The translations under genes and the position numbers were made by a program. 64,000 nt of DNA from an uncultured Clostridia bacterium. GTDB lineage: Bacteria > Bacillota > Clostridia > TANB77 > CAG-508. Positions 6,754 through 41,845 of the stretch are shown in pieces; the stretch's first letter is position 1, and the number at the start of each line of letters is the position of its first letter. The stretch lies in NCBI GenBank assembly GCA_963558405.1, contig CAUWGC010000002.1, positions 40,852 to 104,851 on the forward strand, in the 5' to 3' direction. The notes below the pieces were generated by a model. That model was given only the letters and a program-made list of their open reading frames with translations, had not been told where the DNA came from and ran no database searches.

Positions 6754-6757
6754 TAGA

Positions 6758-15871: not shown

Positions 15872-16129
15872 TCATTTTTTATATAGCTTATCAAAAGCTA
15901 TTTTCTCTTGTTCTTCCATAAAGTTGTCTATTACCTTTTTTCTAAAAAGAACTCTCCCACCCACTCTAAAATGAGGTATCTCATTCTTTCTTACTAGCTG
16001 ACCTATAAGCCAATAAGAAATCCCCATATATTTCGCAGTTTCTTCCATAGTTAAGGTAGTTCTTTCTACTTTTTGATAATTCTCTAAATCTGGCATAATC
16101 TCACCTCCTAGCAAAATTATACAAAGCAA
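15872..16129 (-). CDS. excisionase-family (MerR-like HTH_17) DNA-binding protein
   Basis: It contains TMEETAKYMGISYWLIGQLVRKNEIPHFRVGGRVLF. The real start is probably at 16096, where a GGAGGTG RBS precedes the ATG. Confidence 0.5.
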   Translation of the reverse strand: MLCIILLGGEIMPDLENYQKVERTTLTMEETAKYMGISYWLIGQLVRKNEIPHFRVGGRVLFRKKVIDNFMEEQEKIAFDKLYKK

Positions 16130-16157
16130 TTCTTATCAATCCAAAACCCTTTTTTTT
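16116..16157 (-). promoter_or_regulatory. conserved ICE promoter motif copy 1 (AAAAAGGGTTTTGGATTG-N-TATAAT)
   Basis: On the minus strand: extended -35 TTGGAT, 17-bp spacer, TATAAT. The same architecture recurs at four other sites. Confidence 0.5.
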
Positions 16158-16286
16158 AAAAAATTGCAAAAAAAATAAAGGGCAAAAGATTTTACTCTCT
16201 CGCCCTTCATTGTAGTAAAAAATAATTTATATAATATGAATTCATAAATTATCTCTATTATATTTAATTTTTCTTAAAAGTCAACA

Positions 16287-19200
16287 CTAACAACCTGTTC
16301 TAGGAAGTTTTTGTGTTGTTTCTATTTCTTTTAAATAAGTTATTGTTTTCCAATCATCTTTATCTTCTACATAAATATCTTTATAGTTGCCTGATGCTTT
16401 TGTATGATTTACAAATATAAATCCATTTGGTAAATTATCTAACATATCACAATATAATCTAGGTTTTTCAACTTCTTTAAAGTCTGATTTTACTGTTCCA
16501 AATCTGAATTGAAAATCTGTTATAAATTCTCCCTCTTTTAATGTTGCATCTGTAAATTTAACTTCATTATTAACTAATGTACTCAAACCATCTTTTAGCA
16601 TTATATAGTCATCACTTAAATTAGTTTTATACCATACAGAATATGTTAAATCTTCATTCCAAGTTCCTGTATAAATTTTATTTGCTCTTAAAGCATTTGT
16701 AGGTAATGAATCACTCCAAGTGAAATTATCTAATGCTATGTTAGATTTATTATGAATATTTGAAAAATCATAATATATGTTATCTTTATTTTGTGTTTCT
16801 ATAAATCCTTTTTTAGTAACTTCAATATCAATATCTACATTATCATCTTCTACTTTTGCATCTACAATTTCTTGATGTTTTATTATTTCTGCCTCAAATA
16901 TTTCATCTGTAAGTATATAGTAATCAGGGCTTTCTACTTCTTTTAAAGTATATTTTCCTTTTAATAATTCTTTTGTTGTAGCCTCTCCGTTTTTATCTGT
17001 AAGTAAAGTATCTACTAAATTATTATTTTCATCATATACTTCAAATTTTGCATTTTCAAGTCTTGAACCTTTTACATCTCCATTGTATTTATTATCTTCT
17101 TTGCTTACCTTTATTACTCTGATATAGCCTTTTATTAGTTCGTTTTCAAAAGTTAAATTTGTAATTTGATCTTGTGTTAATGTTACTGTTTGCGGTATTT
17201 CATTTAACACATAATTTTCTAATGTTTTTGATTCTTGTACTGTGTATTTTTTATCTATTCTTAATCTTTTACTTGTAGCCTCTCCATTTTCATCTGTAAT
17301 TAAAGTATCTACTAAGTTTTTATCTTCATCATATACTTTGAATTCTACACCTTTTAGCTTAACCTCATTATTGTCTTTGTCAACTTTTATTACTTTGATT
17401 TGACCTTTCTTTAGTTCATTTTTAAAAGTTAAATCTGTAATTTGGTTTTGTGTTAATGTTACTATTTGTGGTATTTCATTTAACACATAATTTTCTAATG
17501 TTTTTGATTCTTGTACTGTGTATTTTTTATCTATTCTTAATCTTTTACTTGTAGCCTCTCCATTTTCATCTGTAATTAAAGTATCTACTAAGTTTTTATC
17601 TTCATCATATACTTTGAATTCTACACCTTTTAATTTTACCTCATTATTATCTTGATCAACTTTTATTACTTTGATTTGACCTTTTTTTAATTCATTTGTA
17701 AAAGTAACTGTTTTAATTTGTTCTGCCTCTAACACTACTGTTTGTGTCGTTTCATTTAATACATAATTTTGTAAAGTTTCTTTTTCTCTAATTGTTAATT
17801 TTGAATAATCTCTTATTGCATATCTTGATGTATAAGCTTCTCCGTTTTCATCTGTTGTTATTGTTTCTAAAACTTTTCCGTTTTCATCTAAAACATCAAA
17901 TTTTACTCCTTGTAGTTTTACTTCTTTATTGTCTAAATCAATTTTTATAACTTTTACTTGACCTTTCTTCAATTCATTTTCAATAGTATTTTCTTCAGTT
18001 GTATTCCATTTAACTTCAACAGTTGTATCTTCTGCAAGATTATACCATTTTCCTGTATTTTTTTCGATTAGTTTATAACTTCCTGTTCTTAGGTTTTTTA
18101 TGCTTATTTCTCCATTAACATCAGTTGTATATGTTCCAATTACTCTTTGAAATTCCTCTGAATATAAATCAAATTGTACATTTCCTAGTGCTATTTTGTG
18201 ATTATCTTTATCTACTTTATATATTTTCAAATTTCCTTTTTTATGATCATTTGTTATATTTTGATTAGTAGATTTGTTATACTCTACATTTACATCAAAA
18301 GTAGCTTTATTTATAACATAATTATCATTTGTAGAAATTTCTTTTAATTTGTAATTGCCCTGATATAGTCCACTAAATGTTGCTATACCATTTAAATTTG
18401 TAGTAGCATTTGCGACTACTGTTCCATCTGCTTTTGTTAATTGAAATGTTACACCTGCGATTGGTTTTGATGTTTCACTATCTGTTTTATTTATTTGTAA
18501 TTTTCCTGTATTAGTTTTAATGTTAAGAGTAGCACGACCAACACCATCTCCAAAAGGATCATAAGTTAGTGCATAGTTTTGAGTACCTTCTGTTCTAGTT
18601 TTACCATAAAATACAGGATATGTTTTACATTTACCTTGCACATTGATTATAGCATTTGAAATATCTTGTACCATTTGAGATTTAGGTATTTTTACATACA
18701 TACTTTCATTTCCATTAAATGAATTTGTTTGGATACCGTTTGAATTAGTTATAATAGTTCCTTGTGGTAAGTTAGCAGTAGCTGTAATTGTATAATTTGT
18801 CATCTCTACTGTACTTGAAACATTTATTTTTTGAGTATAGTAATTCCCATCCTCATATAAATTGCCTGAATTAGATAATGTTATATTAGGATCTGAAGGC
18901 ATTTGACTACCATTTCTTCCTATGTTTACCATATTAACTATTGCATTTTTAATAGCATCGCCTCTAGCATCTGCTCCTTGATTTGCTCCTCTAAATCTAG
19001 TTACTGGATCAAAGTTATATAAAATGCAATATACTGCTTGTTTAGTAGCTTGAAAAGCCTCTAAATCATTTGCAACTCCCAATTCACTTGCTGATTTATA
19101 AGGAAATCCATTTATAATTGTTCTCCATATTCTAACATCTCCTAAAACATCAGTAACACTAGCATTTACATCAACAGTATATCCATCTAGCTCCCCAACA

Positions 19201-19454
19201 CCTGGATGTTCTCTATTTACACAATAAGCAGGATATTCTTTTCCACCTTCACTATATGTAGTATAAGTGGTTGTAATATAATACCAAGCATTTTTTGCCT
19301 CATTCCAATATTGTAAATGGTATTCCACATCTCCTCTATTTTGAATATTTGCTGAACTAATCTCTGTTGCAAATACACTAGGGTTTATTGTAGAAAATAA
19401 TGTTAATACTAACATTAGCATTGCTAAAATTCTTTTACTTTTTACTTTTATCAT
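16287..19454 (-). CDS. cell-surface adhesin with repeated Cna B-type (prealbumin-fold) domains and C-terminal LPRTG
   Basis: It has a signal peptide. Four near-identical ~90-aa repeats follow (KKGQIKVIKVDKDNNEVKLKGVEFKVYDEDKNLVDTLITDENGEATSKRL...), matching the Cna-B pattern. The ORF ends ...KLPRTGC directly at the stop. The N-terminal region has YCVNREHPG and QATKQAVY, which could be a thioester-domain Cys/Gln pair. Confidence 0.7.
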   Translation of the reverse strand: MIKVKSKRILAMLMLVLTLFSTINPSVFATEISSANIQNRGDVEYHLQYWNEAKNAWYYITTTYTTYSEGGKEYPAYCVNREHPGVGELDGYTVDVNASVTDVLGDVRIWRTIINGFPYKSASELGVANDLEAFQATKQAVYCILYNFDPVTRFRGANQGADARGDAIKNAIVNMVNIGRNGSQMPSDPNITLSNSGNLYEDGNYYTQKINVSSTVEMTNYTITATANLPQGTIITNSNGIQTNSFNGNESMYVKIPKSQMVQDISNAIINVQGKCKTYPVFYGKTRTEGTQNYALTYDPFGDGVGRATLNIKTNTGKLQINKTDSETSKPIAGVTFQLTKADGTVVANATTNLNGIATFSGLYQGNYKLKEISTNDNYVINKATFDVNVEYNKSTNQNITNDHKKGNLKIYKVDKDNHKIALGNVQFDLYSEEFQRVIGTYTTDVNGEISIKNLRTGSYKLIEKNTGKWYNLAEDTTVEVKWNTTEENTIENELKKGQVKVIKIDLDNKEVKLQGVKFDVLDENGKVLETITTDENGEAYTSRYAIRDYSKLTIREKETLQNYVLNETTQTVVLEAEQIKTVTFTNELKKGQIKVIKVDQDNNEVKLKGVEFKVYDEDKNLVDTLITDENGEATSKRLRIDKKYTVQESKTLENYVLNEIPQIVTLTQNQITDLTFKNELKKGQIKVIKVDKDNNEVKLKGVEFKVYDEDKNLVDTLITDENGEATSKRLRIDKKYTVQESKTLENYVLNEIPQTVTLTQDQITNLTFENELIKGYIRVIKVSKEDNKYNGDVKGSRLENAKFEVYDENNNLVDTLLTDKNGEATTKELLKGKYTLKEVESPDYYILTDEIFEAEIIKHQEIVDAKVEDDNVDIDIEVTKKGFIETQNKDNIYYDFSNIHNKSNIALDNFTWSDSLPTNALRANKIYTGTWNEDLTYSVWYKTNLSDDYIMLKDGLSTLVNNEVKFTDATLKEGEFITDFQFRFGTVKSDFKEVEKPRLYCDMLDNLPNGFIFVNHTKASGNYKDIYVEDKDDWKTITYLKEIETTQKLPRTGC

Positions 19455-19461
19455 TTTATCA

Positions 19462-19497
19462 ATTCCTTTCCATAAAAAAAGACACTTGAAAAAGTGC
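19462..19497 (-). terminator. intrinsic terminator-like hairpin after the 19509 ORF
   Basis: The hairpin GGCACTTTTTCAAGTGTC is followed by a T-run on the minus strand. Confidence 0.4.
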
Positions 19498-19508
19498 CTA
19501 ATTAAATA

Positions 19509-19700
19509 TTATTCATTATCTTTGTATTCTGAAAATTCAACTCCTTTGAAGTCATTTTCATCTAATACATATTCTTCTTTTTTATATTTTTCTTTTGTTA
19601 TTTCAATTGCTTGTTCAATATTCTCAGCTTCAATTTCAACGACTCTTTGTAGCAATTCCTCAATTTCAATTTTGTAAATTCTTTTCATACTCACTTCCAT
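19509..19700 (-). CDS. hypothetical small acidic protein
   Basis: A 63-aa ORF tightly packed between the neighbouring genes. Confidence 0.3.
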   Translation of the reverse strand: MEVSMKRIYKIEIEELLQRVVEIEAENIEQAIEITKEKYKKEEYVLDENDFKGVEFSEYKDNE

Positions 19701-20399
19701 CTATATTAAATAACATTCTGTTGTTATATATTGTCCATTATTATAATAATCTCTTGCATATATTCTGATTGTTCCAAATTTATATTTAATTTTATCAATT
19801 ACCCTTTGTTCAGTATATGTAAATTGAGAAGTTAATTCAACAATAGAACTATCTACAACAATGTTATATCCATATAATTTCATATCTTCACTTTGATTAT
19901 TATTTATAATATTTTTAATAGAGTTAATCATAGCATCATTAGTTTTATATTCCTCTCCTTTAATTACAAGCTCTTCTTTTACAACTTCTTGCTTAGTTGT
20001 TTCAGGTTGTATTTGTATGGATTCTTCTTTTGTTTGTTGTGGTGTATTGTTATTATTTTTATTTTCTGTACTTTCCTGTTTTACTTCTGCAATAGGTTGT
20101 TCTTGAACAGTTGTAACTTGTGGAGTAGAAATCTTATTTTGTTTTACTTCAGTTATATTACTTTTGGCTGGAGTCTTTTCGATATTTTTTTCTTGTGTTT
20201 GTTCAATTTTTTCATATACAATCATACTTTCATCTGAAGTATATATTTGACTTGTACTTTCCACATTTTCAACTATATTTTGTAGATTATTATTATCAAT
20301 AATTTCATTTTTAGGATTTGTACTTTTATAGGTCATATAATTGGATAATATAGAAGTTCCAAATACAATAAATAAGATTAAAAAAACATATTTTTTCAT
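19701..20399 (-). CDS. membrane-anchored secreted protein (T/Q/E-rich linker)
   Basis: It has an N-terminal TM/signal anchor (FLILFIVFGTSILS) and a low-complexity QTE-rich middle region. Confidence 0.4.
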   Translation of the reverse strand: MKKYVFLILFIVFGTSILSNYMTYKSTNPKNEIIDNNNLQNIVENVESTSQIYTSDESMIVYEKIEQTQEKNIEKTPAKSNITEVKQNKISTPQVTTVQEQPIAEVKQESTENKNNNNTPQQTKEESIQIQPETTKQEVVKEELVIKGEEYKTNDAMINSIKNIINNNQSEDMKLYGYNIVVDSSIVELTSQFTYTEQRVIDKIKYKFGTIRIYARDYYNNGQYITTECYLI

Positions 20400-20421
20400 A
20401 ACAGATCATCTCCTTAATATC

Positions 20422-20461
20422 ATTATAAAACGATTTAAAAGACAATCCAAAACCCTTTTTA
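20422..20461 (-). promoter_or_regulatory. conserved ICE promoter motif copy 2
   Basis: On the minus strand: AAAAAGGGTTTTGGATTGTCTTTT, then N12, then TATAAT, about 22 bp upstream of the start at 20399. Confidence 0.5.
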
Positions 20462-20467
20462 ATATTT

Positions 20468-21112
20468 TTATTGTCCGTAGTCCATACCTTCAGAAGATTC
20501 TATTGCTTGAACACAAAGTCTTTTTTCTTTTTGCCCTGCAACACAAGTAATAAGTGTAATTCTATTATCTTCGGTTTTCTGTAAATATGACCAATCTTCT
20601 TCATCAATTATCTTTTTTACAGTTACTACATATCTTTTAGTACCATAGTTTGTTTGATAATATATTTCACTACCAATTTTTATTTTCTTTAAATTCTTAA
20701 AAAAGTCGCCTTTATTTCCTGAATTATGAGAGGCTAAACCAACATTTCCCTCATAAATAGAAGTAGAAGGAAAATGACCTATTGTTTCAGATAGTGTAGA
20801 TAATTCAACACTTTCTCTGATAGGTACATTATCAAGTAAAATATCAGGAATTGTAAGTGTTCCTATTTCATCATCATAATGAATAATAATCTGCTCAATA
20901 TCCTCAATAGGTGTATCATCTAAATCTATATTATCGCCAACAACTATATTTTCAGCATCTTTATTTGCTTTATATACAGGATATTTAATTACAAAAAAAA
21001 TAACTCCAACAAGAGTTATAATAGCAACTAAAATTATCGCAATTAAAAATTTATTTTCTTTTTCCACTTTTTGCCTCCTAAATTCTAGTTTCAAATATAT
21101 ATTTTTCATCAT
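20468..21112 (-). CDS. srt: sortase (class B-like transpeptidase)
   Basis: It has an N-terminal TM segment, a His motif GLASHNSGNKGDFFKNL, the catalytic-Cys motif RITLITCVAG, and a downstream Arg (KEKRL). Confidence 0.75.
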   Translation of the reverse strand: MMKNIYLKLEFRRQKVEKENKFLIAIILVAIITLVGVIFFVIKYPVYKANKDAENIVVGDNIDLDDTPIEDIEQIIIHYDDEIGTLTIPDILLDNVPIRESVELSTLSETIGHFPSTSIYEGNVGLASHNSGNKGDFFKNLKKIKIGSEIYYQTNYGTKRYVVTVKKIIDEEDWSYLQKTEDNRITLITCVAGQKEKRLCVQAIESSEGMDYGQ

Positions 21113-22163
21113 TAGTATTGACTAACATTTTAATATTTGTATTACCTTTTTTAACAGTTATCATTTTTCCTTGCATTTTATCTGTTAATTTTTTAGAAAA
21201 TTCTAATTTGTATTTATTAGTTGTTTCAAATAATGAATATTTAGTTAAATTGATTATATTATTTCTATTCATTAGTGTTTTACCAACTTTTACATATTCG
21301 CCATCTTTATAGTTATATACTGTTACATTTCTAGTAAAGAAAAATAGAATTACTAATATAATTCCAGTAGTACCTCCTGCAATAGGTAGTAAATTATCCT
21401 CTTTTTCTTCAATAGTTTCAGGTATAGGATCAGACTTTTCTTCTTCAACTTTATTATATTTAACTGTATAAATATATGGACTTTCTACTGTTTTTGTTGC
21501 TGTCCCTGAATATTCAGCAGTTACACTATAGGTATTAGGATAATCAATTCTTTGTTTACCTGCATAGTAACATTTTGCTGTATATAAATTTGCAACTTCA
21601 TATTCGCCAATCATTTTAGTAGTTTCAACTTCCCATTCAACATTTAATAGATTTAAAGTTAATCCATTTTTAACTGTTTGCTTAGGTATAAAATCTAAGT
21701 CATTTCTTTCTAGGTTAGTGTAATTTATTGTTTCTTCTATTAAATCTTCTCTAAAGCCATTGTAGTTCGTTTTAATTTGTATATTTTGAGTGTTTAATAG
21801 ATATTCTCCAATATATCCATCTTTTTCATAACTAATAGTTGTCCCTAATTGATTTATTATACTTTCTAAGTTATTTGTTTTACTTGTTATTTTTTTAGTT
21901 GTAGTTATATCAATAGTATCTGTCATAGATCCTCCTTCAGAAGTATAACTATCAAAAGTATATTTATCTCCAAAAACTTCAATATCTTTTTCTAAATTTT
22001 CTATAAAAGTATTTTGTTCATCTTTTTGTACTAAATATGTTATATAACAATTTAATTTATTATCAGTAACATTTGTGTTATCTAGCGTTACTGCAAAACA
22101 ATTTGTAGCAGTAAGTAAAGTGCAAAAACTACATACTGCAAATATTCTTTTTATTAACTTCAT
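21078..22163 (-). CDS. secreted / membrane protein (possible second sortase-associated surface protein)
   Basis: It has a signal peptide and an internal TM segment (TTGIILVILFFFTRN). It lies just upstream of the sortase gene. Confidence 0.4.
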   Translation of the reverse strand: MKLIKRIFAVCSFCTLLTATNCFAVTLDNTNVTDNKLNCYITYLVQKDEQNTFIENLEKDIEVFGDKYTFDSYTSEGGSMTDTIDITTTKKITSKTNNLESIINQLGTTISYEKDGYIGEYLLNTQNIQIKTNYNGFREDLIEETINYTNLERNDLDFIPKQTVKNGLTLNLLNVEWEVETTKMIGEYEVANLYTAKCYYAGKQRIDYPNTYSVTAEYSGTATKTVESPYIYTVKYNKVEEEKSDPIPETIEEKEDNLLPIAGGTTGIILVILFFFTRNVTVYNYKDGEYVKVGKTLMNRNNIINLTKYSLFETTNKYKLEFSKKLTDKMQGKMITVKKGNTNIKMLVNTNDEKYIFETRI

Positions 22164-22174
22164 TTTTTTACCTC

Positions 22175-22402
22175 CTAAAATATATTTATTATTCCAAATT
22201 TATTAGCAAGATAAGTAGCTCCAATGGAGCATAAAATTATAATGCCTAAATAGAATAAAATATTAAATATTCTTGATAAAATATTAAATAAAAAAAGTAG
22301 TGCCTTTAGAACTGAATTCTGTTCATTGACAACTACTTGTTCTTCGTATTTTTCTTTGATTTTTTGTTTTTTTAAATATTCTTTATATAAATTTTTCCTC
22401 AT
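22175..22402 (-). CDS. small membrane protein
   Basis: A 75-aa ORF with a hydrophobic C-terminal half. Confidence 0.3.
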   Translation of the reverse strand: MRKNLYKEYLKKQKIKEKYEEQVVVNEQNSVLKALLFLFNILSRIFNILFYLGIIILCSIGATYLANKFGIINIF

Positions 22403-23508
22403 TATTTACCTCTTTTCAGAAAACTGAACAAACCTTTATTTTCAACTACTTCAAGTTTATTAGATTTTTCAGAAATGTAATCCTTAAATATTTCGTGATA
22501 TATTCCTGTATTTATACTGCTATTAAAAGTATCTGTTGTAAATTCAGAAAAATATATATGTTTTATATATGATTTTAAAATCTTTCTAAATTTTGCTTTT
22601 TCCTCATTACTAGAAAAATTAAATATATAATTTACTTCAGGTATTTTTTCTAACAAACTTAAAACTCTAAATGTTTCATCTGTTTCCCAAGCCTTAGTAC
22701 CACCAACTATAATTTTTACTTCTTTTGATAAAAAATTATCTAAAATATTTTCATTTAGAATTCCATAATCATATATGTAAAAATCATAGCCATATTGCAT
22801 AGCATCAATTTTATTGTCATTACTATAAAGATCAATACCTTTATAAGAATATAAACCATCTTTTTTTACCACACCATCTAAGGTTTCTATATTTTTAATT
22901 TCATCTTTATCTGTTGCACAAATATAACAAGCATTCATATTAAGACTTTTTAGAAACATTGTTATTAAAATTGCTTGTGTAGTAACTCCTATATGTTTTT
23001 CAGTTCCTGCAACAGCGATATTTACAAATTGTTTTAATGTTTTATATTCTTTCTTTATAATTATTTTGTTTTTCTTTCCACCTTCGATTTTCTGCCTAAA
23101 TCTGACAGCATCTTTATACTGGCACCCTTCATCACTTAAACATTTCTTAAATTGTTCTTTTTGTTCATAATAGGTATTGCTATTTACAAAATTATAAATA
23201 CCTTCATTGAATAGTTTAGCCAATAGATTATTTCCTTCTTGAAATCCTAAAGCAACTATAATAATTCTGATATTATACATACTTTTAATTGCTACAACTG
23301 ATTGCACAATTTCATCTTCTGATTCCTTAGTCGAGGCTATATCAATAATAATCTGCTTGTAATTATTTAAGTTTCTAAGTTCTTGTACTGCAAATCTTTT
23401 AAGACTATCAACACCAGTTAAAACTTGTGGGCTTTCAAATCCATTTTCTTTGCATACCTCATAAATTAACTTTTCATTTTCTCTAGTAATTGCTAAAATC
23501 AATTTCAT
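22402..23508 (-). CDS. hypothetical protein with degenerate ParA/MinD-like P-loop region
   Basis: NIAVAGTEKHIGVTTQAIL resembles a deviant Walker A (IAV..KGGVGKTT) with the GK lost. The N-terminus looks receiver-like. This is the CpaE/TadZ architecture. Confidence 0.3.
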   Translation of the reverse strand: MKLILAITRENEKLIYEVCKENGFESPQVLTGVDSLKRFAVQELRNLNNYKQIIIDIASTKESEDEIVQSVVAIKSMYNIRIIIVALGFQEGNNLLAKLFNEGIYNFVNSNTYYEQKEQFKKCLSDEGCQYKDAVRFRQKIEGGKKNKIIIKKEYKTLKQFVNIAVAGTEKHIGVTTQAILITMFLKSLNMNACYICATDKDEIKNIETLDGVVKKDGLYSYKGIDLYSNDNKIDAMQYGYDFYIYDYGILNENILDNFLSKEVKIIVGGTKAWETDETFRVLSLLEKIPEVNYIFNFSSNEEKAKFRKILKSYIKHIYFSEFTTDTFNSSINTGIYHEIFKDYISEKSNKLEVVENKGLFSFLKRGK

Positions 23509-23555
23509 CAGCTCCTTTCTTAAAATATAAAAAATAGACTGCCATTTCTGACAAT

Positions 23556-24854: not shown

Positions 24855-24899
24855 TTATTTTTTTAACATTATAGCAAAAAAGTGTGTATTTTTCAATAT

Positions 24900-28010: not shown

Positions 28011-28011
28011 T

Positions 28012-28948: not shown

Positions 28949-28950
28949 CT

Positions 28951-29166: not shown

Positions 29167-29169
29167 AAA

Positions 29170-30027: not shown

Positions 30028-30038
30028 AACGTACCTCC

Positions 30039-30407: not shown

Positions 30408-30414
30408 TGATTTT

Positions 30415-32569: not shown

Positions 32570-32572
32570 CTC

Positions 32573-33511: not shown

Positions 33512-33780
33512 AATTTTTGTAACTCCTTTTTTGTACCTTCTAAATCAACACAAGTAATAATTTTGCTATTAGCAAGTCTTGTTAATTGATTGATATTATT
33601 TCCAATTCTTCTAAGTTCTGTTATCATTTCAGGTAATTCATTTATAACTATAATCTTATTGCCAGTAGAACTTTTAATTATAAATTCTGAAATACTTTGA
33701 TTAGCTTGTTTGCTCTTTAAAGTTATAGTCATTTTTTCTTCAGGAGTTACCCTAATTTCAATTCTCTCTGTTTTCTTCAA
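33472..33780 (-). CDS. mobC: MobC-family relaxosome accessory protein
   Basis: LRRIGNNINQLTRLAN matches the MobC GNNLNQ signature. Confidence 0.7.
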   Translation of the reverse strand: MKKTERIEIRVTPEEKMTITLKSKQANQSISEFIIKSSTGNKIIVINELPEMITELRRIGNNINQLTRLANSKIITCVDLEGTKKELQKLWQSLNLLTTKSV

Positions 33781-33844
33781 TATATCTCCTTCCTTGTGCT
33801 AATAAAACTTATGTGGTGTAACCACTTGATCAAAAAAAGGTACT

Positions 33845-33885
33845 TTTTGCTCCCTTTGTACTGACAAAGGGGAATCTTGCTATAC
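33845..33885 (-). promoter_or_regulatory. candidate oriT (inverted repeat + nic-like core)
   Basis: The IR CCCTTTGT-actg-ACAAAGGG is followed by GAATCTTGCTATAC. ATCTTGC resembles the MOB-P nic core ATCCTG|C. It sits between parB-like and mobC. Confidence 0.45.
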
Positions 33886-34773: not shown

Positions 34774-34784
34774 AATAATTCCTC

Positions 34785-35066
34785 CTATTCAAGTTCTATA
34801 TCAGATTCCATAGAATTAGGTTTTACATATAAGTCTTGGACTTCTTCATAATGTAAATTTTCAAATTCTTTATCTGTTAAAAAGTCTTTACCCTCTAATA
34901 TATCTTTATTTGTTACAAGTGATCCAATGTTATTAACTAACACTCCTCTTTCGATTTGGTATCCATTGTCAATTTTTGAATCTCTTATATCATAATAGAA
35001 TAAATTAGGATTTCTTTCTTCAATAGGTGGCTTTTCGTGTAGCCATTGTATTTTTAAACCTTCCAT
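34785..35066 (-). CDS. hypothetical protein
   Basis: A 93-aa ORF with an acidic C-terminus. Confidence 0.35.
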   Translation of the reverse strand: MEGLKIQWLHEKPPIEERNPNLFYYDIRDSKIDNGYQIERGVLVNNIGSLVTNKDILEGKDFLTDKEFENLHYEEVQDLYVKPNSMESDIELE

Positions 35067-35067
35067 T

Positions 35068-35487
35068 TTACATCTCCATTTCTTCCTCGTATTCCAAATC
35101 TTTATTAAATTGTCCTATCTTATTTACTGCCTCAAAAATATCTGTATTTGAGTCTATTTGTAAATAAGGAATAGTGTTTTTTAAATTATTATAAACCGTA
35201 AAAGATCCATTTATAGGATCTAAAATAATTGCATAAAAAGAAACATTTTTTGATTTTAAATCTCTGCTTGTTTCATTCCATACAATTTCATCATCATCTG
35301 AAATATTTTCTTTAGAAAAATATATCATTTCTTCTAATTTCTTCAGTATAGTAGGATTTCTAAATATATTATCTTCAGGAAGTTCAGAATAATTATTTAC
35401 AATATAATTGTATAAATAACTTTCATCAGAAAAGGCTTGTAGCATATTTAAGTTTTTACCTTTTATAAATAATTGTATATTTTTCAA
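35068..35487 (-). CDS. hypothetical protein (ends EEEMEM)
   Basis: A 139-aa ORF. Confidence 0.4.
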   Translation of the reverse strand: MKNIQLFIKGKNLNMLQAFSDESYLYNYIVNNYSELPEDNIFRNPTILKKLEEMIYFSKENISDDDEIVWNETSRDLKSKNVSFYAIILDPINGSFTVYNNLKNTIPYLQIDSNTDIFEAVNKIGQFNKDLEYEEEMEM

Positions 35488-35526
35488 GTTTTACCTCCTA
35501 AAAAAGAGTTAGTATAAACTAACCCC

Positions 35527-35820
35527 TTAACTAATACATTCAATTAACAAATTGATTCCATCTTTAAACCCTTGTTTATAATATTTGTCTAAAGTTGCAC
35601 TTTCTCTTTTTAACATATCTTCTAAAGTTAAATCTAAATATTTGTCAATTTTATTTCTCAATCTTTGATTATAGATTTTATCAATAAGTTCTCTTAATTT
35701 TTCTTCGTTACCATCTTTTTGTATTTCGTAGCTAACCTCTTTTTCTAATTCACTTCTGTTAGCTAGAACTCCTTGCTCTCTATCCCAATAGATTGATTCT
35801 AAAAGTGTTTCTTTTGGCAT
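35527..35820 (-). CDS. hypothetical protein
   Basis: A 97-aa ORF. A GGAGG RBS and conserved promoter copy 3 lie upstream. Confidence 0.4.
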   Translation of the reverse strand: MPKETLLESIYWDREQGVLANRSELEKEVSYEIQKDGNEEKLRELIDKIYNQRLRNKIDKYLDLTLEDMLKRESATLDKYYKQGFKDGINLLIECIS

Positions 35821-35844
35821 ATAATTTTACCTCCTTGTCAATGA

Positions 35845-35883
35845 ATTATATAATGATATAAAATTAAATCCAAAACCCTTTTA
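35845..35883 (-). promoter_or_regulatory. conserved ICE promoter motif copy 3
   Basis: On the minus strand: AAAAGGGTTTTGGATTTAATTTTATATCATTATATAAT. Confidence 0.5.
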
Positions 35884-35893
35884 GAAAAATTTT

Positions 35894-36385
35894 TTAAAAT
35901 TCCATTTCATCTGTTTCTTCCATTGCTGAATCATCAATCTCTTGCTTTTCCTCTTGATTTTCTTCTTTTCTATATTTTTCGACATCATTTGCAAGTTGTG
36001 TACATAGTTCTTCTTCTAACCTATCTATTTTCTTTCCTAGCATTTCTTTTGGCATACCAACTTTTTCCTCATTATAATCTGTACTTAAAAATAATGTTTT
36101 AAAATTATATATCTTTGTTCGTAATGGATAATTTCCCAATGTATAATAATCTTGCATAATCTTTTTATATGGTATTATACTTTTATGATTTCCTCTTAAT
36201 TCATTCCCTTCTTGAAGTATTTTTATGATTTCTTTATCTAATCCTTTTTGACCTTCTCTATTATAAATATCTGTTAGCCAAGTATATTTACTAGAATAAA
36301 AAGGAGCAGTATCATTACTACTTTTGTGGCTTAGATACACTCCATCTTTTTTTATTGTAATTCTATTTATTAGCTCTCTACTCAT
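35894..36385 (-). CDS. hypothetical protein with C-terminal EETDEMEF tail
   Basis: A 163-aa ORF. Its C-terminal eight residues are identical to those of the ArdA-like protein. Confidence 0.45.
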   Translation of the reverse strand: MSRELINRITIKKDGVYLSHKSSNDTAPFYSSKYTWLTDIYNREGQKGLDKEIIKILQEGNELRGNHKSIIPYKKIMQDYYTLGNYPLRTKIYNFKTLFLSTDYNEEKVGMPKEMLGKKIDRLEEELCTQLANDVEKYRKEENQEEKQEIDDSAMEETDEMEF

Positions 36386-36999
36386 TAAAATTCCATCTCC
36401 TCTCCATTTTCTATTTGTGCCTCTAATTCTTGAATTTTATTATTTAAAGTTTCAACTTCTCCTTTTAATTTTAAATTTTCTTCTATTAGTAATCCTTTAT
36501 CTATTGCATTAGTTCTTGGATCTTCAAAGTCATTATTTATAGCCTTTATTTTACCCATACTCAAATATTGACTTTCTCCAACTATAATATGATCTGTTAG
36601 TTGAATATTAAATGCTTTTAACATTTTACCTGTAATATTTGTTATATGTTTATCAGGTTTACTTGGCTCTAAATCATTTGAAGGATGATTATGTACTAAT
36701 ATCACTTTTTCACTTGCTGTTATTAAAGCTGTTCTAACAATATATTTACTATCTACATATATTTCATTACATTTACCAACTCCAATTAAACTTATATTTC
36801 TAACATTATTTCTTGAATCTAATCCTATAAATAATAAATGCTCTTGAACAGCATCTTTTATTTCTTGTACTTCTTTTAATTTATATACATCATCTGAACT
36901 TGCTACTTTCATAATATCTCTTTCTTCTACTGGAGGCTTTTTTTGTATTTCTATTTCTAACCCCATACTTTTAAAACTCCATTTCATCTGTTTCTTCAA
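36385..36999 (-). CDS. RadC-like JAB domain protein (DUF2466)
   Basis: The JAB motif reads VILVHNHPSNDLEPSKPDKHITNIT. The ORF ends GEEMEF. Confidence 0.8.
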   Translation of the reverse strand: MKKQMKWSFKSMGLEIEIQKKPPVEERDIMKVASSDDVYKLKEVQEIKDAVQEHLLFIGLDSRNNVRNISLIGVGKCNEIYVDSKYIVRTALITASEKVILVHNHPSNDLEPSKPDKHITNITGKMLKAFNIQLTDHIIVGESQYLSMGKIKAINNDFEDPRTNAIDKGLLIEENLKLKGEVETLNNKIQELEAQIENGEEMEF

Positions 37000-37969
37000 T
37001 TTCTTCTAAGATAATTGTTCTATCTTCTAAATCTTTCTTAATATCTTCAATTTGACTTTCTTCAACAGATTTAAAATCTCCATTTTCGTAATCATCTCCA
37101 ATAATAAAACAGTTTCCTGCAATATAATCATAGTCAAATTGTAGATTAGGTTTTAAATTTGTAATTTTACCTTCTTCATTACATATAAGAAGTAAATCAT
37201 CTTTATAAGGCACAACTTCAATTAGTCCTCCAACTAATTTTTGTTTTGCCTCTAAGGTATCTTCAATTTCCATAACAATAGGATCTTTTCCCACTTCTTT
37301 ATAGACAATTCTCAACTTTTTTTCTTCAGATTCTTCTTCATCGTATCCTAGTTCTTCTTTTATTTCTTCTAAAGAATAATAATGTAAATCAATATCTCCA
37401 CAAGCTCCATTTTCAAGATAACCATTTTCATATAAACTAACATCATCATCCATACCATATTTTTCGTAGTCAAAACAATCAGTAACATAGTATTTTTCTA
37501 ATATTTCATCTAAGCCATTCCATATAGCTTTAGACATTCCATATTTTTCTTCGTTAGAAAGATTTTCTGAATTTTCTTCATAAGGATAAAAAGGTATATT
37601 ATCTTCTTGTAGCATAACATTTATTATTTCTTCTATATCATCTGTACCTTGATATTCAATATAAGCTTCAACAGCCTCCATATTATTTACTTTTTCAGAT
37701 GCCATTGCTAATAAATTAAGCATATTCAAATTACTATATTCACTAACTTTTATTGGTAAATCAGTTTCATAATCATTTATCATATATTCTTCATAACATA
37801 CACCATCTTCAGTGAGTGCTTTTTCAACTTCTTCTTGTGTTAATTGAAGTCCCACTTTTTCTCTTAAAAAAGTATCTAATTCTTTTTTAGAAACAGGAAG
37901 TTCTAACCATTCGCCAACAAGTTCTCCTTCGTTATATTTTCCTAAGTTTCCAATCCAAACATTAAGCAT
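36971..37969 (-). CDS. ardA: ArdA-like anti-restriction protein (double length, acidic C-terminal extension)
   Basis: The N-terminal VWIGNLGKYNEGELVGEWLELP is the ArdA signature. The protein is highly acidic and ends EETDEMEF. Confidence 0.65.
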   Translation of the reverse strand: MLNVWIGNLGKYNEGELVGEWLELPVSKKELDTFLREKVGLQLTQEEVEKALTEDGVCYEEYMINDYETDLPIKVSEYSNLNMLNLLAMASEKVNNMEAVEAYIEYQGTDDIEEIINVMLQEDNIPFYPYEENSENLSNEEKYGMSKAIWNGLDEILEKYYVTDCFDYEKYGMDDDVSLYENGYLENGACGDIDLHYYSLEEIKEELGYDEEESEEKKLRIVYKEVGKDPIVMEIEDTLEAKQKLVGGLIEVVPYKDDLLLICNEEGKITNLKPNLQFDYDYIAGNCFIIGDDYENGDFKSVEESQIEDIKKDLEDRTIILEEIEETDEMEF

Positions 37970-38013
37970 ATATACTCCTTCCTAAAAAAGAGCTAGTAAT
38001 ACTAACTCAATTT

Positions 38014-38343
38014 TTATATTTTTTGTAAAATATCTTTCATTAGAACTTCATCAACTAAACCATCTATCATTTGCTGATATTTAGCAAGTATAGTTATTTC
38101 GTGTGTATTAGGAGCTTCATATTTTTCTTTAATTTGTTTTTCTACTTGCTCTTTCAACTCTAAAATGTACTTTTCTCGCTCAAATATCTTAATTTCAAGT
38201 TTTCCTGTAAGCTCTAACTCTTGTTTTCTATATGGATAATTTTTTTCCATATTTGCTAAGATCATTTCTCCATACTTTCCAAAAATCATTTCAATTCCCT
38301 TCCTTCCATAATAAATTTTACAATACACCATAGGCTTATACAA
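38014..38343 (-). CDS. hypothetical protein
   Basis: A 109-aa ORF. Confidence 0.35.
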   Translation of the reverse strand: MYKPMVYCKIYYGRKGIEMIFGKYGEMILANMEKNYPYRKQELELTGKLEIKIFEREKYILELKEQVEKQIKEKYEAPNTHEITILAKYQQMIDGLVDEVLMKDILQKI

Positions 38344-38498
38344 AACCTAGAAACAAAAAAGAGATGTTAAGAACTTTCGCTCTTTTGCATCTCTCATACT
38401 TGTTTCATTATACTTATTATACTACTTATTTTTGATATTTCAACCTAGTCTTTTTTGTGTACTCTTTTTTGTGTGTACTTTTTTGTCTAGTATTTTTG

Positions 38499-38993
38499 TT
38501 AAACTTTTTTATCCTTTGATTTTAACTTTTCTATCTCCATATTATCTTCTAGTTCATTTAACCTTTCAAATTCATTTATCAATGTATTTATTGGAATATT
38601 CAAATCTAGTATAGGTTTTAGCATTTTTTCTAATTCATTTATCTTCTTATCTTTTTCTTTTACTTGATATTCAAGTTGTTTTGTGTATTCATCTATTTTG
38701 TCATCATTTATTAAATATGTTTTTTCTTTTTCAAATTTTATTCCATTTACTTCGCAACTTTTATCCCAATTAGGATTTTGATATTGTTTACTTTCTTCAT
38801 TAAAATTTATTCTATGTTGTAATAATAATGTTCTTAATAAAAACTCTGTATCACGATTCACTTCATCAAATGCAGTTTCTGTAGCAATAAATACTAGGTC
38901 TTTATACATATTTCTCAAAACATCTATACTTAAATCTTCTATCGGTTGTTCCATATAATTATTATAATTTTTCTTAAAATCATCCCAAAGCAT
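38499..38993 (-). CDS. hypothetical protein
   Basis: A 164-aa ORF. Confidence 0.4.
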   Translation of the reverse strand: MLWDDFKKNYNNYMEQPIEDLSIDVLRNMYKDLVFIATETAFDEVNRDTEFLLRTLLLQHRINFNEESKQYQNPNWDKSCEVNGIKFEKEKTYLINDDKIDEYTKQLEYQVKEKDKKINELEKMLKPILDLNIPINTLINEFERLNELEDNMEIEKLKSKDKKV

Positions 38994-38994
38994 A

Positions 38995-39549
38995 TTACTT
39001 TTCTCCTTCCTTTAATTTTTCTTCATAATATACAAAAATATCATCAATTTTCCTATCTCCAAAACATCTTTTATAATCTTCTTGTTCGTTTTCTTTCCAC
39101 CATTCAAATTTCTCTTTTATTTTATTTCTTACCTTTGTAGTATCTATGTTAGAATTCTTTTCTATAGCTAACAAAACATTTATACTATCCCAACCACTAA
39201 TTGAGACATCAAAGTATCTTATTGCTTCATAACCAAATTCATCTTTAGTTTCTTCTATTTTTCTATCATAAGAAATATATAAGTAGTCATCCTTAAATAA
39301 ATGATTTTCCTTTACATATTCATAATATAAATCTTTTACTCCTGAAGTTTTAACAAAACCTGTCAAATACCATATCGTTTTACTTCTAAATTTAATGTAA
39401 TCCTTTGGTAGATCTTTCTCTTTAATTTTGGTAGGATGCCATCCTAATGAATATAAATACTCGTTTTTTTCATCAATTGGTCTCCAAGTTTTTCTATCAA
39501 ATTTTCCTTTTGAATACCAATATGAATTTATCTTTTTCATCTTTATCAC
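38995..39549 (-). CDS. hypothetical protein
   Basis: A 184-aa ORF that overlaps the downstream metallophosphoesterase gene by 4 bp. Confidence 0.4.
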   Translation of the reverse strand: MIKMKKINSYWYSKGKFDRKTWRPIDEKNEYLYSLGWHPTKIKEKDLPKDYIKFRSKTIWYLTGFVKTSGVKDLYYEYVKENHLFKDDYLYISYDRKIEETKDEFGYEAIRYFDVSISGWDSINVLLAIEKNSNIDTTKVRNKIKEKFEWWKENEQEDYKRCFGDRKIDDIFVYYEEKLKEGEK

Positions 39550-40388
39550 CCCTTAAACATATATAAGTCATTATAGTTTGTGTCGGTATCTATTATTGCA
39601 TAAAACATATCTTTATTACCTCTTTCTGTTTGCCCTGTTTGTATGCAAATTGTCCCATTCAATTCATTTTTCCAAATTCCTGTAACTCTATAAGATTCGT
39701 GAATATGACCGTGTAAAGACATATAAGCATTACTTTTTTCTAAGAAATTAGTTATTGCTTTTGAGCCTACTTGTCGTTTATCCATACATACATCTAGTCC
39801 TATTCCAAATGGTGGATTATGAAATACATAAATAACCTTTTTTCCTTCTGTTGCTTTAGGTAAATGTTCTAAGACATTTTCCATTTTTTCTATATTATTT
39901 CTATATTCTTTCCATTCATCAACAGATAACATATTTCTACATTTTTCGACATATATTATTCTTGATAATTGAAACTGCATTTCTAAATTTTTCTCAATTA
40001 CGACTCTATCTTTACAGCCAAAAGGATGGTCTAATACTTTAGATAATCCTATAAATGAATTATTTTCAATATCTACCTTTTTATTATCTATATTAAATAC
40101 ATTATCAAATTTGCTACACTCATTTTCAAATATTTCATCTAATTGTTCTAAATCATCATTTCCTAATATACAAATACATTTAATATTATTTTTTTTCAAT
40201 TCGGTAAAATAATTATCGAAAAATTGCTCTATAAATATTTTTTGTTCATTATATCTATCGCTACAATTTTTAGGTAATAGATCTCCTCCAAATACTAAAT
40301 ATTCTACTTTTTGTTTTATTGTCTCTTCTAATAATTTTTTGTATTTATATTCATCTCCGTGAATATCACTGGCATATATAAATTTCAT
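39546..40388 (-). CDS. calcineurin-like metallophosphoesterase
   Basis: The family motifs are present: DIHGD, GGDL, GNDD and HGHIH. Confidence 0.7.
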   Translation of the reverse strand: MKFIYASDIHGDEYKYKKLLEETIKQKVEYLVFGGDLLPKNCSDRYNEQKIFIEQFFDNYFTELKKNNIKCICILGNDDLEQLDEIFENECSKFDNVFNIDNKKVDIENNSFIGLSKVLDHPFGCKDRVVIEKNLEMQFQLSRIIYVEKCRNMLSVDEWKEYRNNIEKMENVLEHLPKATEGKKVIYVFHNPPFGIGLDVCMDKRQVGSKAITNFLEKSNAYMSLHGHIHESYRVTGIWKNELNGTICIQTGQTERGNKDMFYAIIDTDTNYNDLYMFKG

Positions 40389-40579
40389 TATTCTCCTCCC
40401 TTCGATCTTTTGTTTTTATACCATTCTCTTATTGCACTACCTAAAGCCACTTTCTCCTTACCATAATTTTCACTTGGAAAATCTGATAAGTTATAAATAA
40501 TTAGTGCTGTCGGTACACTACACTTTCTTAATTTTGCAAACTCAGTCGGTGTATAAAAAATATTATCATTTAGTTCCAT
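40388..40579 (-). CDS. hypothetical small protein
   Basis: A 63-aa ORF. Confidence 0.3.
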   Translation of the reverse strand: MELNDNIFYTPTEFAKLRKCSVPTALIIYNLSDFPSENYGKEKVALGSAIREWYKNKRSKGGE

Positions 40580-40594
40580 TTTTAACTCCTGTTT

Positions 40595-40924
40595 TTAAAT
40601 GTTTAGCATATTCATTGATTCAAAATAAATATATGCCTCTTTAAAACCTAATTTAAAGGATTCTTTTAATTCAATAACATCAAGTTCTCCTTGTAATTCA
40701 AGAATCTCCAAAATTGCTTTCTGTTCAGCATTATTTAATTCTACATTCTCTTTTTCTTCTAAGAATTTAATTACATTTGGGTATTTTTCTTTTAAATTAC
40801 ATATCTTCTGATTTAATTTCTTATATTCTTTCTTTTGTAAAACATTCAATACTTTGTGCTTATCAAAATATTCCCAGAAATCATCAGAATATGTGTCAAA
40901 AAAACCTTCTTCAAAATTTTCCAT
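40595..40924 (-). CDS. hypothetical protein
   Basis: A 109-aa ORF with conserved promoter copy 4 upstream. Confidence 0.4.
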   Translation of the reverse strand: MENFEEGFFDTYSDDFWEYFDKHKVLNVLQKKEYKKLNQKICNLKEKYPNVIKFLEEKENVELNNAEQKAILEILELQGELDVIELKESFKLGFKEAYIYFESMNMLNI

Positions 40925-40951
40925 TTAATATCCCTCCTATCCTATTTTTGC

Positions 40952-40990
40952 ATTATATAGAATAAAAAAAGACAATCCCAAACCTTTTTA
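40952..40990 (-). promoter_or_regulatory. conserved ICE promoter motif copy 4
   Basis: On the minus strand: AAAAAGGTTTGGGATTGTCTTTTTTTATTCTATATAAT. Confidence 0.5.
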
Positions 40991-41088
40991 TAAAAAAATT
41001 AAAAATGTGCCACTTTATACAGCGACACATCTTTATATTATATACAAATTCCTTCATTTTCAAGTATTTAATTATTTTTATTTTAATT

Positions 41089-41343
41089 TTAATTTATTTC
41101 ATCTATCACTTCCTCATTTAAAATTTTCTTTAAAAGTTCTAATTTGGTTTCAGCTTTTATTCTTAACTCTTTTTCTCGTTCATACATTTCTTTACTAATA
41201 GAATCTCCACCTACTTTTATTTTGTATTGTCCTCCCTCAGTTTTTATATACTCGACTTCTTTATTATATAGTAATTGTAATGCAACATTATAACCTATCT
41301 TCCTTCGTTTCATAAACTCACTTAAACTAATCCATTCTTCCAT
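41089..41343 (-). CDS. small HTH DNA-binding protein
   Basis: It contains LSEFMKRRKIGYNVALQLLYNKE. The ORF is 84 aa. Confidence 0.4.
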   Translation of the reverse strand: MEEWISLSEFMKRRKIGYNVALQLLYNKEVEYIKTEGGQYKIKVGGDSISKEMYEREKELRIKAETKLELLKKILNEEVIDEIN

Positions 41344-41688
41344 TTAATTCACTTCTTTCTCACTAGGTATCTTATTAACAAAACATCCTATATTTAATTT
41401 TTTCATCTTGGATATTTCTTCATCTAACTGTCTTTCAGTAGTAATTCCATATTTTCTTAATTCCTTTACAATGACTTTATTATTTGTAAGAATGTATTTT
41501 AAATCAATATCCCTTGTATCTTGTTGTTGTCCTACAAATTCTAAGAACTTGCTTTTAATGATAACATAGTTCCATTTGCCTGTTTTTGATTGAATAGCTG
41601 TCCCAAAATCAAACCTTCCCTGTCTTAAACCTGCTCTTATAAATTCAGGATTTTTATTTATTATTTTTCCTGCCTCTATAGGAGTCAT
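41344..41688 (-). CDS. hypothetical protein
   Basis: A 114-aa ORF with conserved promoter copy 5 upstream. Confidence 0.4.
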   Translation of the reverse strand: MTPIEAGKIINKNPEFIRAGLRQGRFDFGTAIQSKTGKWNYVIIKSKFLEFVGQQQDTRDIDLKYILTNNKVIVKELRKYGITTERQLDEEISKMKKLNIGCFVNKIPSEKEVN

Positions 41689-41763
41689 TGTTTCAACTTT
41701 TTCTATTTACATTCCCCCCTTTACTATAAAAATTTAATGTGTGTCGTTCCGCAAACTAATAAC

Positions 41764-41803
41764 ATTATAAAATAATTTAAAAGACAATCCCAAACCCTTT
41801 TTA
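41764..41803 (-). promoter_or_regulatory. conserved ICE promoter motif copy 5
   Basis: On the minus strand: AAAAAGGGTTTGGGATTGTCTTTTAAATTATTTTATAAT. Confidence 0.5.
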
Positions 41804-41845
41804 TAAAAAATTTACAAAAAAAAATAAAGCTAGTACAATAATGCA

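Follow-up and report, generated by a model that had tools for sequence, protein, structure and literature searches.

The locus described here raises the question of what a short sequence repeated ahead of the operons of a conjugative element does, and what reads it. The window, by which we mean the whole stretch of DNA analysed, comprises 64,000 nucleotides (nt) of contig CAUWGC010000002.1 (positions 40,852–104,851; assembly GCA_963558405.1) from an uncultured member of the Clostridia (CAG-508), and has a G+C content of 25.9%. An integrative and conjugative element (ICE) of 41.6 kb spans positions 3572–45168 and is set in a tRNA-Met gene. A sequence-only reading of the window had pointed to five minus-strand copies of a conserved extended promoter that would drive the ICE operons. 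We find seven such sites, and we lean towards a reading in which they are co-oriented, co-regulated ICE promoters that combine a -10 element for the housekeeping sigma factor with a factor-binding box lying over the -35 position.

Seven Sites Share a Box over the -35 Position

On the minus strand, the pattern AARGGTTTKGGATT-N16-TATAAT occurs with no mismatches at 16116–16151, 20422–20457, 35845–35880, 40952–40987, and 41764–41799, which accounts for all five sites of the sequence-only reading. By chance, a mean of 0.12 matches is expected, and none of 100 dinucleotide-preserving shuffles of the window reaches the observed count. A weight matrix trained on related elements only, without the window sites, was then applied to the window and raises the number of sites from five to seven (20.8–37.2 bits; next best match 13.8 bits; maxima of ten shuffles 9.6–15.1 bits). 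The two additional sites, both degenerate, are Pint, upstream of int, and PtnpV, upstream of the TnpV-like/ardA operon. All seven lie within the ICE, on the gene strand, 19–75 nt 5′ of start codons, and no box site is found in the 22 kb of host DNA in the window. The anatomy that had been described for the five original sites is confirmed: a perfect TATAAT stands in fixed register to the box on the gene strand, its end 19, 22, 24, 27, or 75 nt from the start codon, with GGAGG-type ribosome-binding sites in between. A terminator hairpin lies directly 5′ of four of the seven sites (P1, PtnpV, P4, and P5), so that those operons need a promoter of their own, and P2 and P3 begin a few bases past the stop codon of the preceding gene.

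The box is 14–16 bp long and consists of an A-tract followed by GG(G)TTT(T/G)GGA(T), at about -44 to -29, where a canonical -35 element would sit. The -10 hexamer is of the primary-sigma type, with an exact TATAAT at six sites and TAAAAT at PtnpV. The same cannot be said of the -35 element: the best matches to TTGACA are TTGGAT at a spacing of 17 bp (3/6) and TTGGGA at 18 bp (4/6), and only TTG or TGG of the consensus is retained. The host tRNA-Met promoter in the window reads TTGACA-17-TATACT. Extracytoplasmic function (ECF) sigma factors recognise GGAAC-type -35 and CGT-type -10 elements; the ICE sites, with TATAAT at -10 and a box without an AAC core, do not belong to that class. Of the consensus sequences for SigH, SigF/G, SigE/K, SigB, TcdR-type, and ECF sigma factors, none fits the invariant positions of the box. 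A generic sigma-70 consensus scan of the window was uninformative (151 sites vs. 156 expected), and with such scans useless at this base composition it is the G-rich box that carries all the specificity.

The consensus proposed in the sequence-only reading holds for the box and for TATAAT. The TGTC that it placed after GGATT, however, is present in only three of the five copies and is not kept among orthologous sites, and the spacer, given as N12 after TGTC, is correctly N16. We also considered TTGTC as a Spo0A-binding 0A box (TGTCGAA) and rejected it because TGTC is not conserved.

The tRNA-Met promoter (45212–45250, minus strand) can be written as AAAGGGTTGACA-17-TATACT and has AAAGGGTT in common with the box, but its GGG is 2 bp nearer the -10 than in the box, so the likeness is probably coincidence. 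Neither this likeness nor the one between the AAAGGGTA arm repeats near the ICE ends and the 5′ half of the box is significant on its own.

The Box Is Conserved across an Element Family

The exact pattern was scanned for in one genome per species from 185,579 species and was found at 56 loci. Homologues of ICE genes are carried by 33 of these, with the box at the same gene junctions, on contigs of 24–30% G+C that are mostly labelled uncultured Clostridia; the remaining loci are single chance matches in unrelated taxa. Viral contigs scanned with the motif gave 0 matches. As this set was selected by the motif, loci were also fetched through proteins, namely homologues of a 147-residue protein of the ICE at 88, 50, 49, 43, and 33% identity and of its Orf7-like protein at 68% (loci L057–L067, L071–L073, L082–L085, and L087). 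In these loci the box is found upstream of DUF6664, of a 97-residue protein gene, of the TnpV-like gene, of int, and of some cargo genes, and it is absent from the host flanks and from most cargo. In 477 kb of protein-fetched loci, those junctions are the only places matched by a matrix derived from the window sites. The box is specific to the ICE family and is not a host intergenic repeat; the sequence-only reading, which such a repeat would have refuted, withstands this check.

To describe the conservation, 63 distinct orthologous sites were aligned on the -10; since the anchoring demanded a GGKTTK core and a -10-like hexamer, the figures that follow lean somewhat towards the motif. The spacer from -28 to -15 carries ~0 bits, and G-39, G-38, T-36, T-35, G-33, A-31, and TATAAT are kept at 95–100%. 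The strongest signal comes from G residues, on a strand with ~13% G. Upstream, an A-tract occupies -44 to -41 and a T-tract -50 to -47, which bears out the claim that conservation extends beyond the -35 hexamer on its upstream side. Even the most divergent box-positive element (L085) retains the core GGGTTTGGA. As read from these alignments, the pattern reflects purifying selection acting on a promoter of two parts and not a recent duplication.

The box is kept down to a 147-residue homologue of 33% identity (L085). It is absent in a more distant clade (L068–L078; homologue ~30% identical), as sampled in 10-kb flanks that leave the transfer genes and the left end outside; the one junction sampled in this clade, downstream of a large helicase gene, has a promoter of the extended -10 type.

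Operons Headed by the Box

All seven sites are on the minus strand. P1 (16116–16155; 37.2 bits) lies 19 nt 5′ of the ATG of an Xis-like HTH_17 gene (15872–16096), with a terminator (16174–16211) immediately upstream, and its orthologues in L030, L037, L051, L007, and L029 have different spacers. P2 (20422–20461; 33.1 bits) begins ~10 nt past the stop codon of the sortase gene and is followed by a gene for a 232-residue protein (19701–20399), a DpnD/PcfM-like gene (19509–19700), and a gene for a TED (thioester)/SpaA adhesin (16287–19454); seven distinct orthologous upstream regions were aligned. The sortase gene (20468–21112) had been assigned to P2, but it lies upstream of this site, in a long operon that starts at P3, and P2 would therefore drive the adhesin group and not the sortase. 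P3 (35845–35884; 31.8 bits) is upstream of the 97-residue protein gene (35527–35820), which heads the ParB, MobC/NikA, relaxase, VirD4, TrbL, VirB4, M23 peptidase, and sortase genes. Over 17 distinct orthologous upstream regions the P3 spacers vary freely, and the box is present in loci found by protein and not by motif (L057, L059, L061, L064, L067, and L085).

PtnpV (38315–38354; 20.8 bits) has a degenerate box, CTAGGTTTTGTATA-N16-TAAAAT, upstream of the TnpV-like ATG at 38287–38289; ardA (36971–37969) and radC (36385–36999) follow. Orthologous sites occur in 19 distinct regions that were not motif-selected, with variants including GGGTTTGGAAAA-...-TATAAT. P4 (40952–40991; 30.2 bits) lies between a terminator (41000–41035) and DUF6664 (40595–40924), which is followed by a metallophosphatase gene (39546–40388) and three more genes; its box is found in every protein-selected locus that carries DUF6664. 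P5 (41764–41803; 34.0 bits), in a cargo hot spot, has a 75-nt leader ahead of two small genes of unassigned function (41344–41688 and 41089–41343) and a terminator upstream (41828–41851). P5-type sites with the leader core TTTGCGGcACGACACA occur in L010, L019, and L085. Pint (TAGGGTTTGGAGTT-N16-TATAAT, 4954–4993; 27.1 bits) begins at the xis stop codon, 60 nt 5′ of the int ATG, and its register is kept in L045 (TAGGGTTTGGTATC) and L082–L084 (TAAGGTTTGGTCTT).

The boxes do not extend to replication, which had been listed among the box-driven modules: the replication-initiator module (43190–43957) and both RinA-like genes described below are in a right-end operon without a box.

Two further observations concern the surroundings of these sites. 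Upstream of P1, PtnpV, and P4 there is a near-consensus sigma-70-type promoter, followed ~35–80 nt on by a terminator hairpin that ends just before the box promoter. These promoters are TTGAAA-16-TATAAT (38443–38416), TTGACT-16-TATAAT (16284–16257), and TTGAAA-17-TAATAT (41063–41035, a weaker 9/12 match), and the units span 38350–38443, 16174–16284, and 41000–41063 on the minus strand, the one before PtnpV being kept in all relatives; they could be small RNAs or occlusion units. The P5 leader (41689–41763, minus strand) has a conserved core, TTTGCGGaACGACACA, which is also seen in L010, L019, and L085, and a strong ribosome-binding site followed by an ATG-TAA start-stop mini-open reading frame (ORF) just 5′ of the first gene.

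Candidate Readers of the Box

The most plausible candidates for reading the box are small proteins with a predicted sigma region-4-type helix-turn-helix: two RinA/ArpU-like paralogues or an Orf7-like/Orf8-like pair. The sequence-only reading had named one sigma-r4-like and one ArpU-like protein; the sigma region-4 assignment stands, the RinA/ArpU assignments fall below curated cut-offs, and the latter proteins are two paralogues rather than one. The first, the 147-residue protein (42704–43147, minus strand), matches phrog_36 (E 3e-9), and its AlphaFold model (predicted local distance difference test score, pLDDT, 85.6) has an N-terminal helical hairpin and a C-terminal helix-turn-helix. The second, of 138 residues (44069–44485, minus strand), is 28% identical to the first and matches phrog_36 (E 1.6e-5) and TIGR01636 (E 4e-3; 17.2 bits vs. 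a cut-off of 31.9). A homologue of the 138-residue protein is found in every box-positive lineage with a sampled right end. Its C-terminal ...YKNAKxRNL occurs in most box-positive lineages examined, with variants in L017 and L031 and a truncation in L071, and is replaced in three box-negative lineages; this is a correlation with the box that plain phylogeny could explain equally well.

The Orf7-like protein (5952–6410, minus strand) matches Sigma70_r4_2 (E 2.5e-7), phage sigma-factor PHROGs, and TIGR02937 (sigma70-ECF; 42.7 bits vs. a cut-off of 42.9, model positions 50–165). It is 143–152 residues long (143 in public gene calls), and Pfam finds no region-2 domain in it. In its structure model (pLDDT 60) the N-terminal half is poor, with one long helix and a disordered stretch, too poor to decide on region 2. 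Its partner is an Orf8-like HTH_16 protein (5719–5949, minus strand; PF12645, E 2e-11), and the arrangement of the two genes is kept in L082–L084.

Co-variation of box and reader was followed through elements with a 147-residue homologue of 50, 49, 43, 33, and ~30% identity. Box-positive lineages differ from one another in the predicted recognition helix of either paralogue, and co-variation therefore singles out no reader. By tblastn, the Orf7-like and both RinA-like proteins have no match in PLSDB plasmids or INPHARED phages.

Comparison with Known Systems

In SXT/R391 ICEs, SetCD binds a 19-bp box at the -35 position in the promoters of int, xis, and the transfer operons (PMC4344509). The arrangement seen here is like that of the SetCD boxes and the AcaCD boxes of IncC plasmids, in which one box beside or over a poor -35 is found at many promoters of one conjugative element, including those of int, xis, and the transfer operons, and a factor encoded by the element governs them as a single regulon (PMC4344509, PMC4207636). 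The seven sites of the present ICE conform to this layout, since they include Pint, the site before the Xis-like gene, and those that open the adhesin operon and the DNA-processing/type IV secretion operon. They differ in the Gram-positive host, in an unrelated box sequence, and in the -10, which is the consensus TATAAT at the candidate promoters of this ICE and poor at the SetCD promoters. No FlhC/FlhD domain was found in Pfam and NCBIfam scans of the ~60 larger ORFs of the ICE.

RinA-type proteins activate phage late operons. The RinA/ArpU/Ltr phage activators have ~140 residues and a C-terminal part like sigma region 4 (PMC3152322, PMC3753634). The two paralogues are of similar size, may have a C-terminal part of this kind, and are likewise encoded beside mobile-element replication genes. 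Whereas the phages have a single such promoter, upstream of terS, the ICE has seven promoters and two paralogues, and the sequences that RinA is reported to need for binding lie >155 bp upstream of the start site and not in a -35 box (PMC3152322, PMC3753634). Homologues of the RinA-like proteins were not found by tblastn in 50,697 phage records.

Tn916 lacks promoters within its transfer region, which is transcribed from Porf7 once the element has circularised and not before; transcription then passes an insulating terminator, aided by canT RNA. Tn916 also makes clear why the transfer genes have to be kept off in the integrated state (PMC11658703). The order orf7-like, orf8-like, xis, int is shared with Tn916, as are the co-orientation of the transfer genes and the position of the terminator at 44943–44970, which matches that of the T1 insulator (PMC11658703). 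The ICE departs from Tn916 in its seven candidate internal promoters and its MobA/VirD4/VirB4-type transfer module. At the position of canT, between the orf8-like gene and a 75-residue ORF/xis, it has a structured RNA region (5385–5720, minus strand; -81.8 kcal/mol, z = -4.0 vs. shuffles), and the Rfam family pemK (RF02913) matches at 5438–5511 with 51 bits (gathering score 34.8).

Middle promoters of phage T4 combine a MotA box with a sigma-70 -10 in what is termed sigma appropriation. The ICE promoters resemble them in having a good primary-sigma -10 and, in place of the -35, an element-specific box at a fixed distance; the analogy is one of mechanism only, as no MotA or AsiA homologues are present and the box is centred at ~-36 in the ICE and at -30 in T4.

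A Proposed Transfer Programme

Class II activators and -35 surrogates work in the span that the box covers, -44 to -29. We infer promoters in which host RNA polymerase with the primary sigma factor would use the -10 and an element-encoded DNA-binding protein on the box would recruit or release the polymerase, by class II activation or as a -35 surrogate. Such a switch would turn on int, the second Xis-like gene, and the anti-restriction, DNA-processing, type IV secretion, and adhesin genes together with some cargo.

The extension of this reading that we tentatively prefer is a programme in two tiers. Induction at the orf7 promoter would lead to excision, after which, by analogy with Tn916, read-through from that promoter across the joined ends would enter the right-end operon. 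This operon, behind its insulating terminator, would be expressed only after excision, and the RinA-like proteins would then act at the seven box promoters as a second, late tier. In its most far-reaching form, which we regard as less likely than not, this would be a phage-like programme of a Tn916/Tn1549-superfamily ICE: the RinA/ArpU-like pair, made post-excision with the help of the structured RNA at the canT position, would bind (A)nGG(G)TTTKGGA, a -35 surrogate not described before, at all seven promoters, and the Spo0A-like regulator would stand atop the cascade.

Several observations weigh against a factor-read box and against these readers in particular. The A/T tracts at -50 to -40 and the purines after them fit an UP element, and TTG with a perfect -10 could suffice for the primary sigma factor. 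If the element has a processive antiterminator like that of Tn916, internal promoters are not strictly needed. The RinA/ArpU matches are below curated cut-offs, the 147-residue protein scoring 27.4 vs. 31.9 bits for TIGR01636 and 24.4 vs. 43.1 for TIGR01637. In Foldseek comparisons of its model the E values (0.6–3) are not significant, and the best PDB matches are to ECF region 4 of SigL, SigD, and sigma-E (probability 0.85–0.98). Finally, the box is unchanged where the 147-residue homologue is only 33–50% identical and has a different predicted recognition helix (L085, L067), and likewise in L034, where the Orf7-like protein is 39% identical.

Alternative Explanations

The alternative that survives best, although we think it unlikely, is that the sites are ordinary strong constitutive promoters of the primary sigma factor, composed of a T/A-tract UP element for the alpha subunit, a minimal TTG -35, and TATAAT, and that the copies are a cassette spread by duplication or recombination. 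The T-run at -50 to -47 and the A-run at -44 to -41 followed by purines are like the UP-element consensus, TTG is kept at a spacing of 17 or 18 bp, a longer upstream block, TTTTTGCAATTTTTT(A)TAAAAA, is common to P1, P4, and P5, and the spacers of P2, P4, and P5 are mutually similar. However, the most conserved positions, G-39, G-38, G-33, and T-37 to T-35, are not constrained by an UP element or by the -35 consensus, and the box is not at host promoters in the window or in the 477 kb of related loci. Shared ancestry alone is inadequate, as the spacers of orthologues diverge freely and the box does not. Constitutive expression of a relaxase and type IV secretion from an integrated element would, moreover, be expected to be harmful (PMC11658703).

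It is distinctly improbable, in our judgement, that the box instead serves as the -35 of an alternative sigma factor carried by the element. This factor would be the ECF-type Orf7-like protein, perhaps together with the Orf8-like one, and would replace the primary sigma factor. The near-threshold TIGR02937 score and the matches to phage sigma-factor PHROGs would fit such a role, as would the strict register of box and -10 and the retention of the left-end module in relatives. The -10, by contrast, is TATAAT in most orthologues and at all window sites but PtnpV, which is the -10 of the primary sigma factor and not of an ECF type; region 2 is not found by Pfam in a protein of 143–152 residues whose N-terminal half is modelled poorly; and the box of L034 is unchanged opposite an Orf7-like protein with a different recognition helix. 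The sigma-specific extended -35 of the sequence-only reading is on these grounds less likely than a housekeeping-sigma -10 with a factor-binding box.

A repressor in place of an activator appears highly doubtful to us. The box would then be the operator of a maintenance repressor encoded on the opposite strand, either the Spo0A-like protein (6855–7562) or an XRE-like one (15458–15718), which would occlude the -35 while the element is integrated. The minus strand holds all ICE genes except these two, both of which encode DNA-binding proteins and have promoters of their own, a layout that mirrors that of orf9 in Tn916; the response regulator is kept in relatives, and a position over the -35 is typical of operators. 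However, an XRE dimer would call for a palindrome, which the box is not; for the response regulator, the TTCAGCA-type repeats and 0A boxes of its own divergent promoter region are the more evident target; and a weak -35 with a perfect -10 is more typical of activated promoters. That the box serves recombination or DNA architecture, for instance as a site for integrase or excisionase, with TATAAT-like neighbours by accident, is scarcely credible: each 25-bp arm repeat does have two AAAGGGTA units resembling the 5′ half of the box, but AAAGGG alone is expected ~14 times in the window (estimated from base composition), and a fixed 16-bp register on the gene strand, 19–75 nt from start codons at seven operon heads, is a property of promoters.

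Architecture of the Element

The ICE is delimited by a 17-bp direct repeat, the attachment core GACCTTCGGGTTATGAG, at 3572–3588 (left) and 45152–45168 (right). The right copy is the anticodon arm of tRNA-Met (45124–45199), and the 3′ part of this tRNA is supplied by the ICE. Repeats of 25 bp, ATAAAGGGTAAATAAAGGGTATAAA (minus strand), are located 60–130 bp inside the ICE ends (3648–3672 and 44997–45021), are kept in relatives, and are probably bound as arm-type sites by integrase or excisionase.

The element joins a Tn916-like recombination and regulation end to a Tn1549-like MobA-relaxase/VirD4/VirB4 transfer module. Int (3700–4893) and xis (4987–5172), both on the minus strand, lie at the left end, followed by the orf8-like and orf7-like genes and the divergent Spo0A-like response regulator (6855–7562, plus strand; receiver and Spo0A_C domains). 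Beyond the response regulator come a restriction-modification and immunity block, the Xis-like HTH_17 gene, the thioester/SpaA adhesin, the sortase, and the transfer module in the order M23 peptidase, VirB4, TrbL, VirD4, MobA-type relaxase, MobC/NikA, and ParB. ArdA, RadC, the TnpV-like protein, DUF6664, the metallophosphatase, and cargo including a HEPN protein follow. The right-end operon encodes a 157-residue protein, the 138-residue RinA-like protein, the replication initiator (HTH_36), and the 147-residue RinA/ArpU-like protein. No promoter is evident at its start except a weak 9/12 consensus match that overlaps the arm repeat. The terminator at 44943–44970 (minus strand) stands just inside the right ICE end, and L057-type elements have a terminator of different sequence at the equivalent position.

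The divergent region between the orf7-like and Spo0A-like genes (6660–6790) holds five tandem TTCAGCA-type repeats on the minus strand, four exact and one variant, spaced ~10–11 bp apart. It also holds a perfect 0A box, TGTCGAA (6727–6733), and, ~15–20 bp downstream, a TGTCGAT just before a TTGAAA-17-TGnTATAAT promoter (6758–6786). The repeats and the 0A box are kept in L082–L084, where the response regulator is also present; its counterpart in L034 is 75% identical. The predicted recognition helix of the Spo0A-like protein, PKTVKWSIRTSID, differs from the Spo0A signature at residues that we take to be base-contacting, so canonical 0A boxes may not be what this regulator reads. A pair of perfect TGTCGAA boxes (15353–15369), spaced 10 bp apart, lies ~90 bp 5′ of the plus-strand ORF of 86 residues at 15458–15718, which gives a near-threshold match to HTH_3 (XRE; E 1.7e-4) and is a candidate for a maintenance repressor wired to Spo0A.

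The cargo hot spot is the interval 41089–42700, between the 147-residue protein gene and DUF6664, and holds a HEPN gene in the window. In close relatives (L057–L066, 10450–17500) the loads differ and include ABC transporters, TetR and GntR regulators, reverse transcriptases, ECF sigmas, and a beta-lactamase. Several relatives have defence genes upstream of the right-end operon (Thoeris ThsA/ThsB, AbiA-like reverse transcriptase/HEPN, and HamA). A leader, (T)ACAATTTGAAAGTGAG, recurs just before start codons at cargo junctions, at 42650–42665 (minus strand) in the window and at L071 ~10470, L074 ~18290, L075 ~19770, and L077 ~10470–10510; repeat copies of the unit AATTACAAT occur in the distant clade, with three in L077. 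This leader may be a recombination or translation signal of cargo cassettes.

Implications

The timing of transfer in Gram-positive conjugative elements is known in detail for few models, such as ICEBs1, Tn916, pLS20, and pCF10. The element family described here is widespread in human and animal gut Clostridia, with single regulator variants on 87 to 204 contigs, and defence and resistance-type genes crowd its cargo hot spot. The putative promoter regulon, which spans the element and is marked by its box at -35, suggests one element-encoded switch for excision, DNA-processing, mating-pore, and adhesin genes, a design that contrasts with that of Tn916, reported to be without internal promoters. 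A putative regulon of seven promoters with one short box offers a direct experimental handle, and its weight matrix could be used to annotate the transfer regulon in metagenomes. If the RinA-like pair does read the box, phage late-gene activators would be linked to the control of conjugation.

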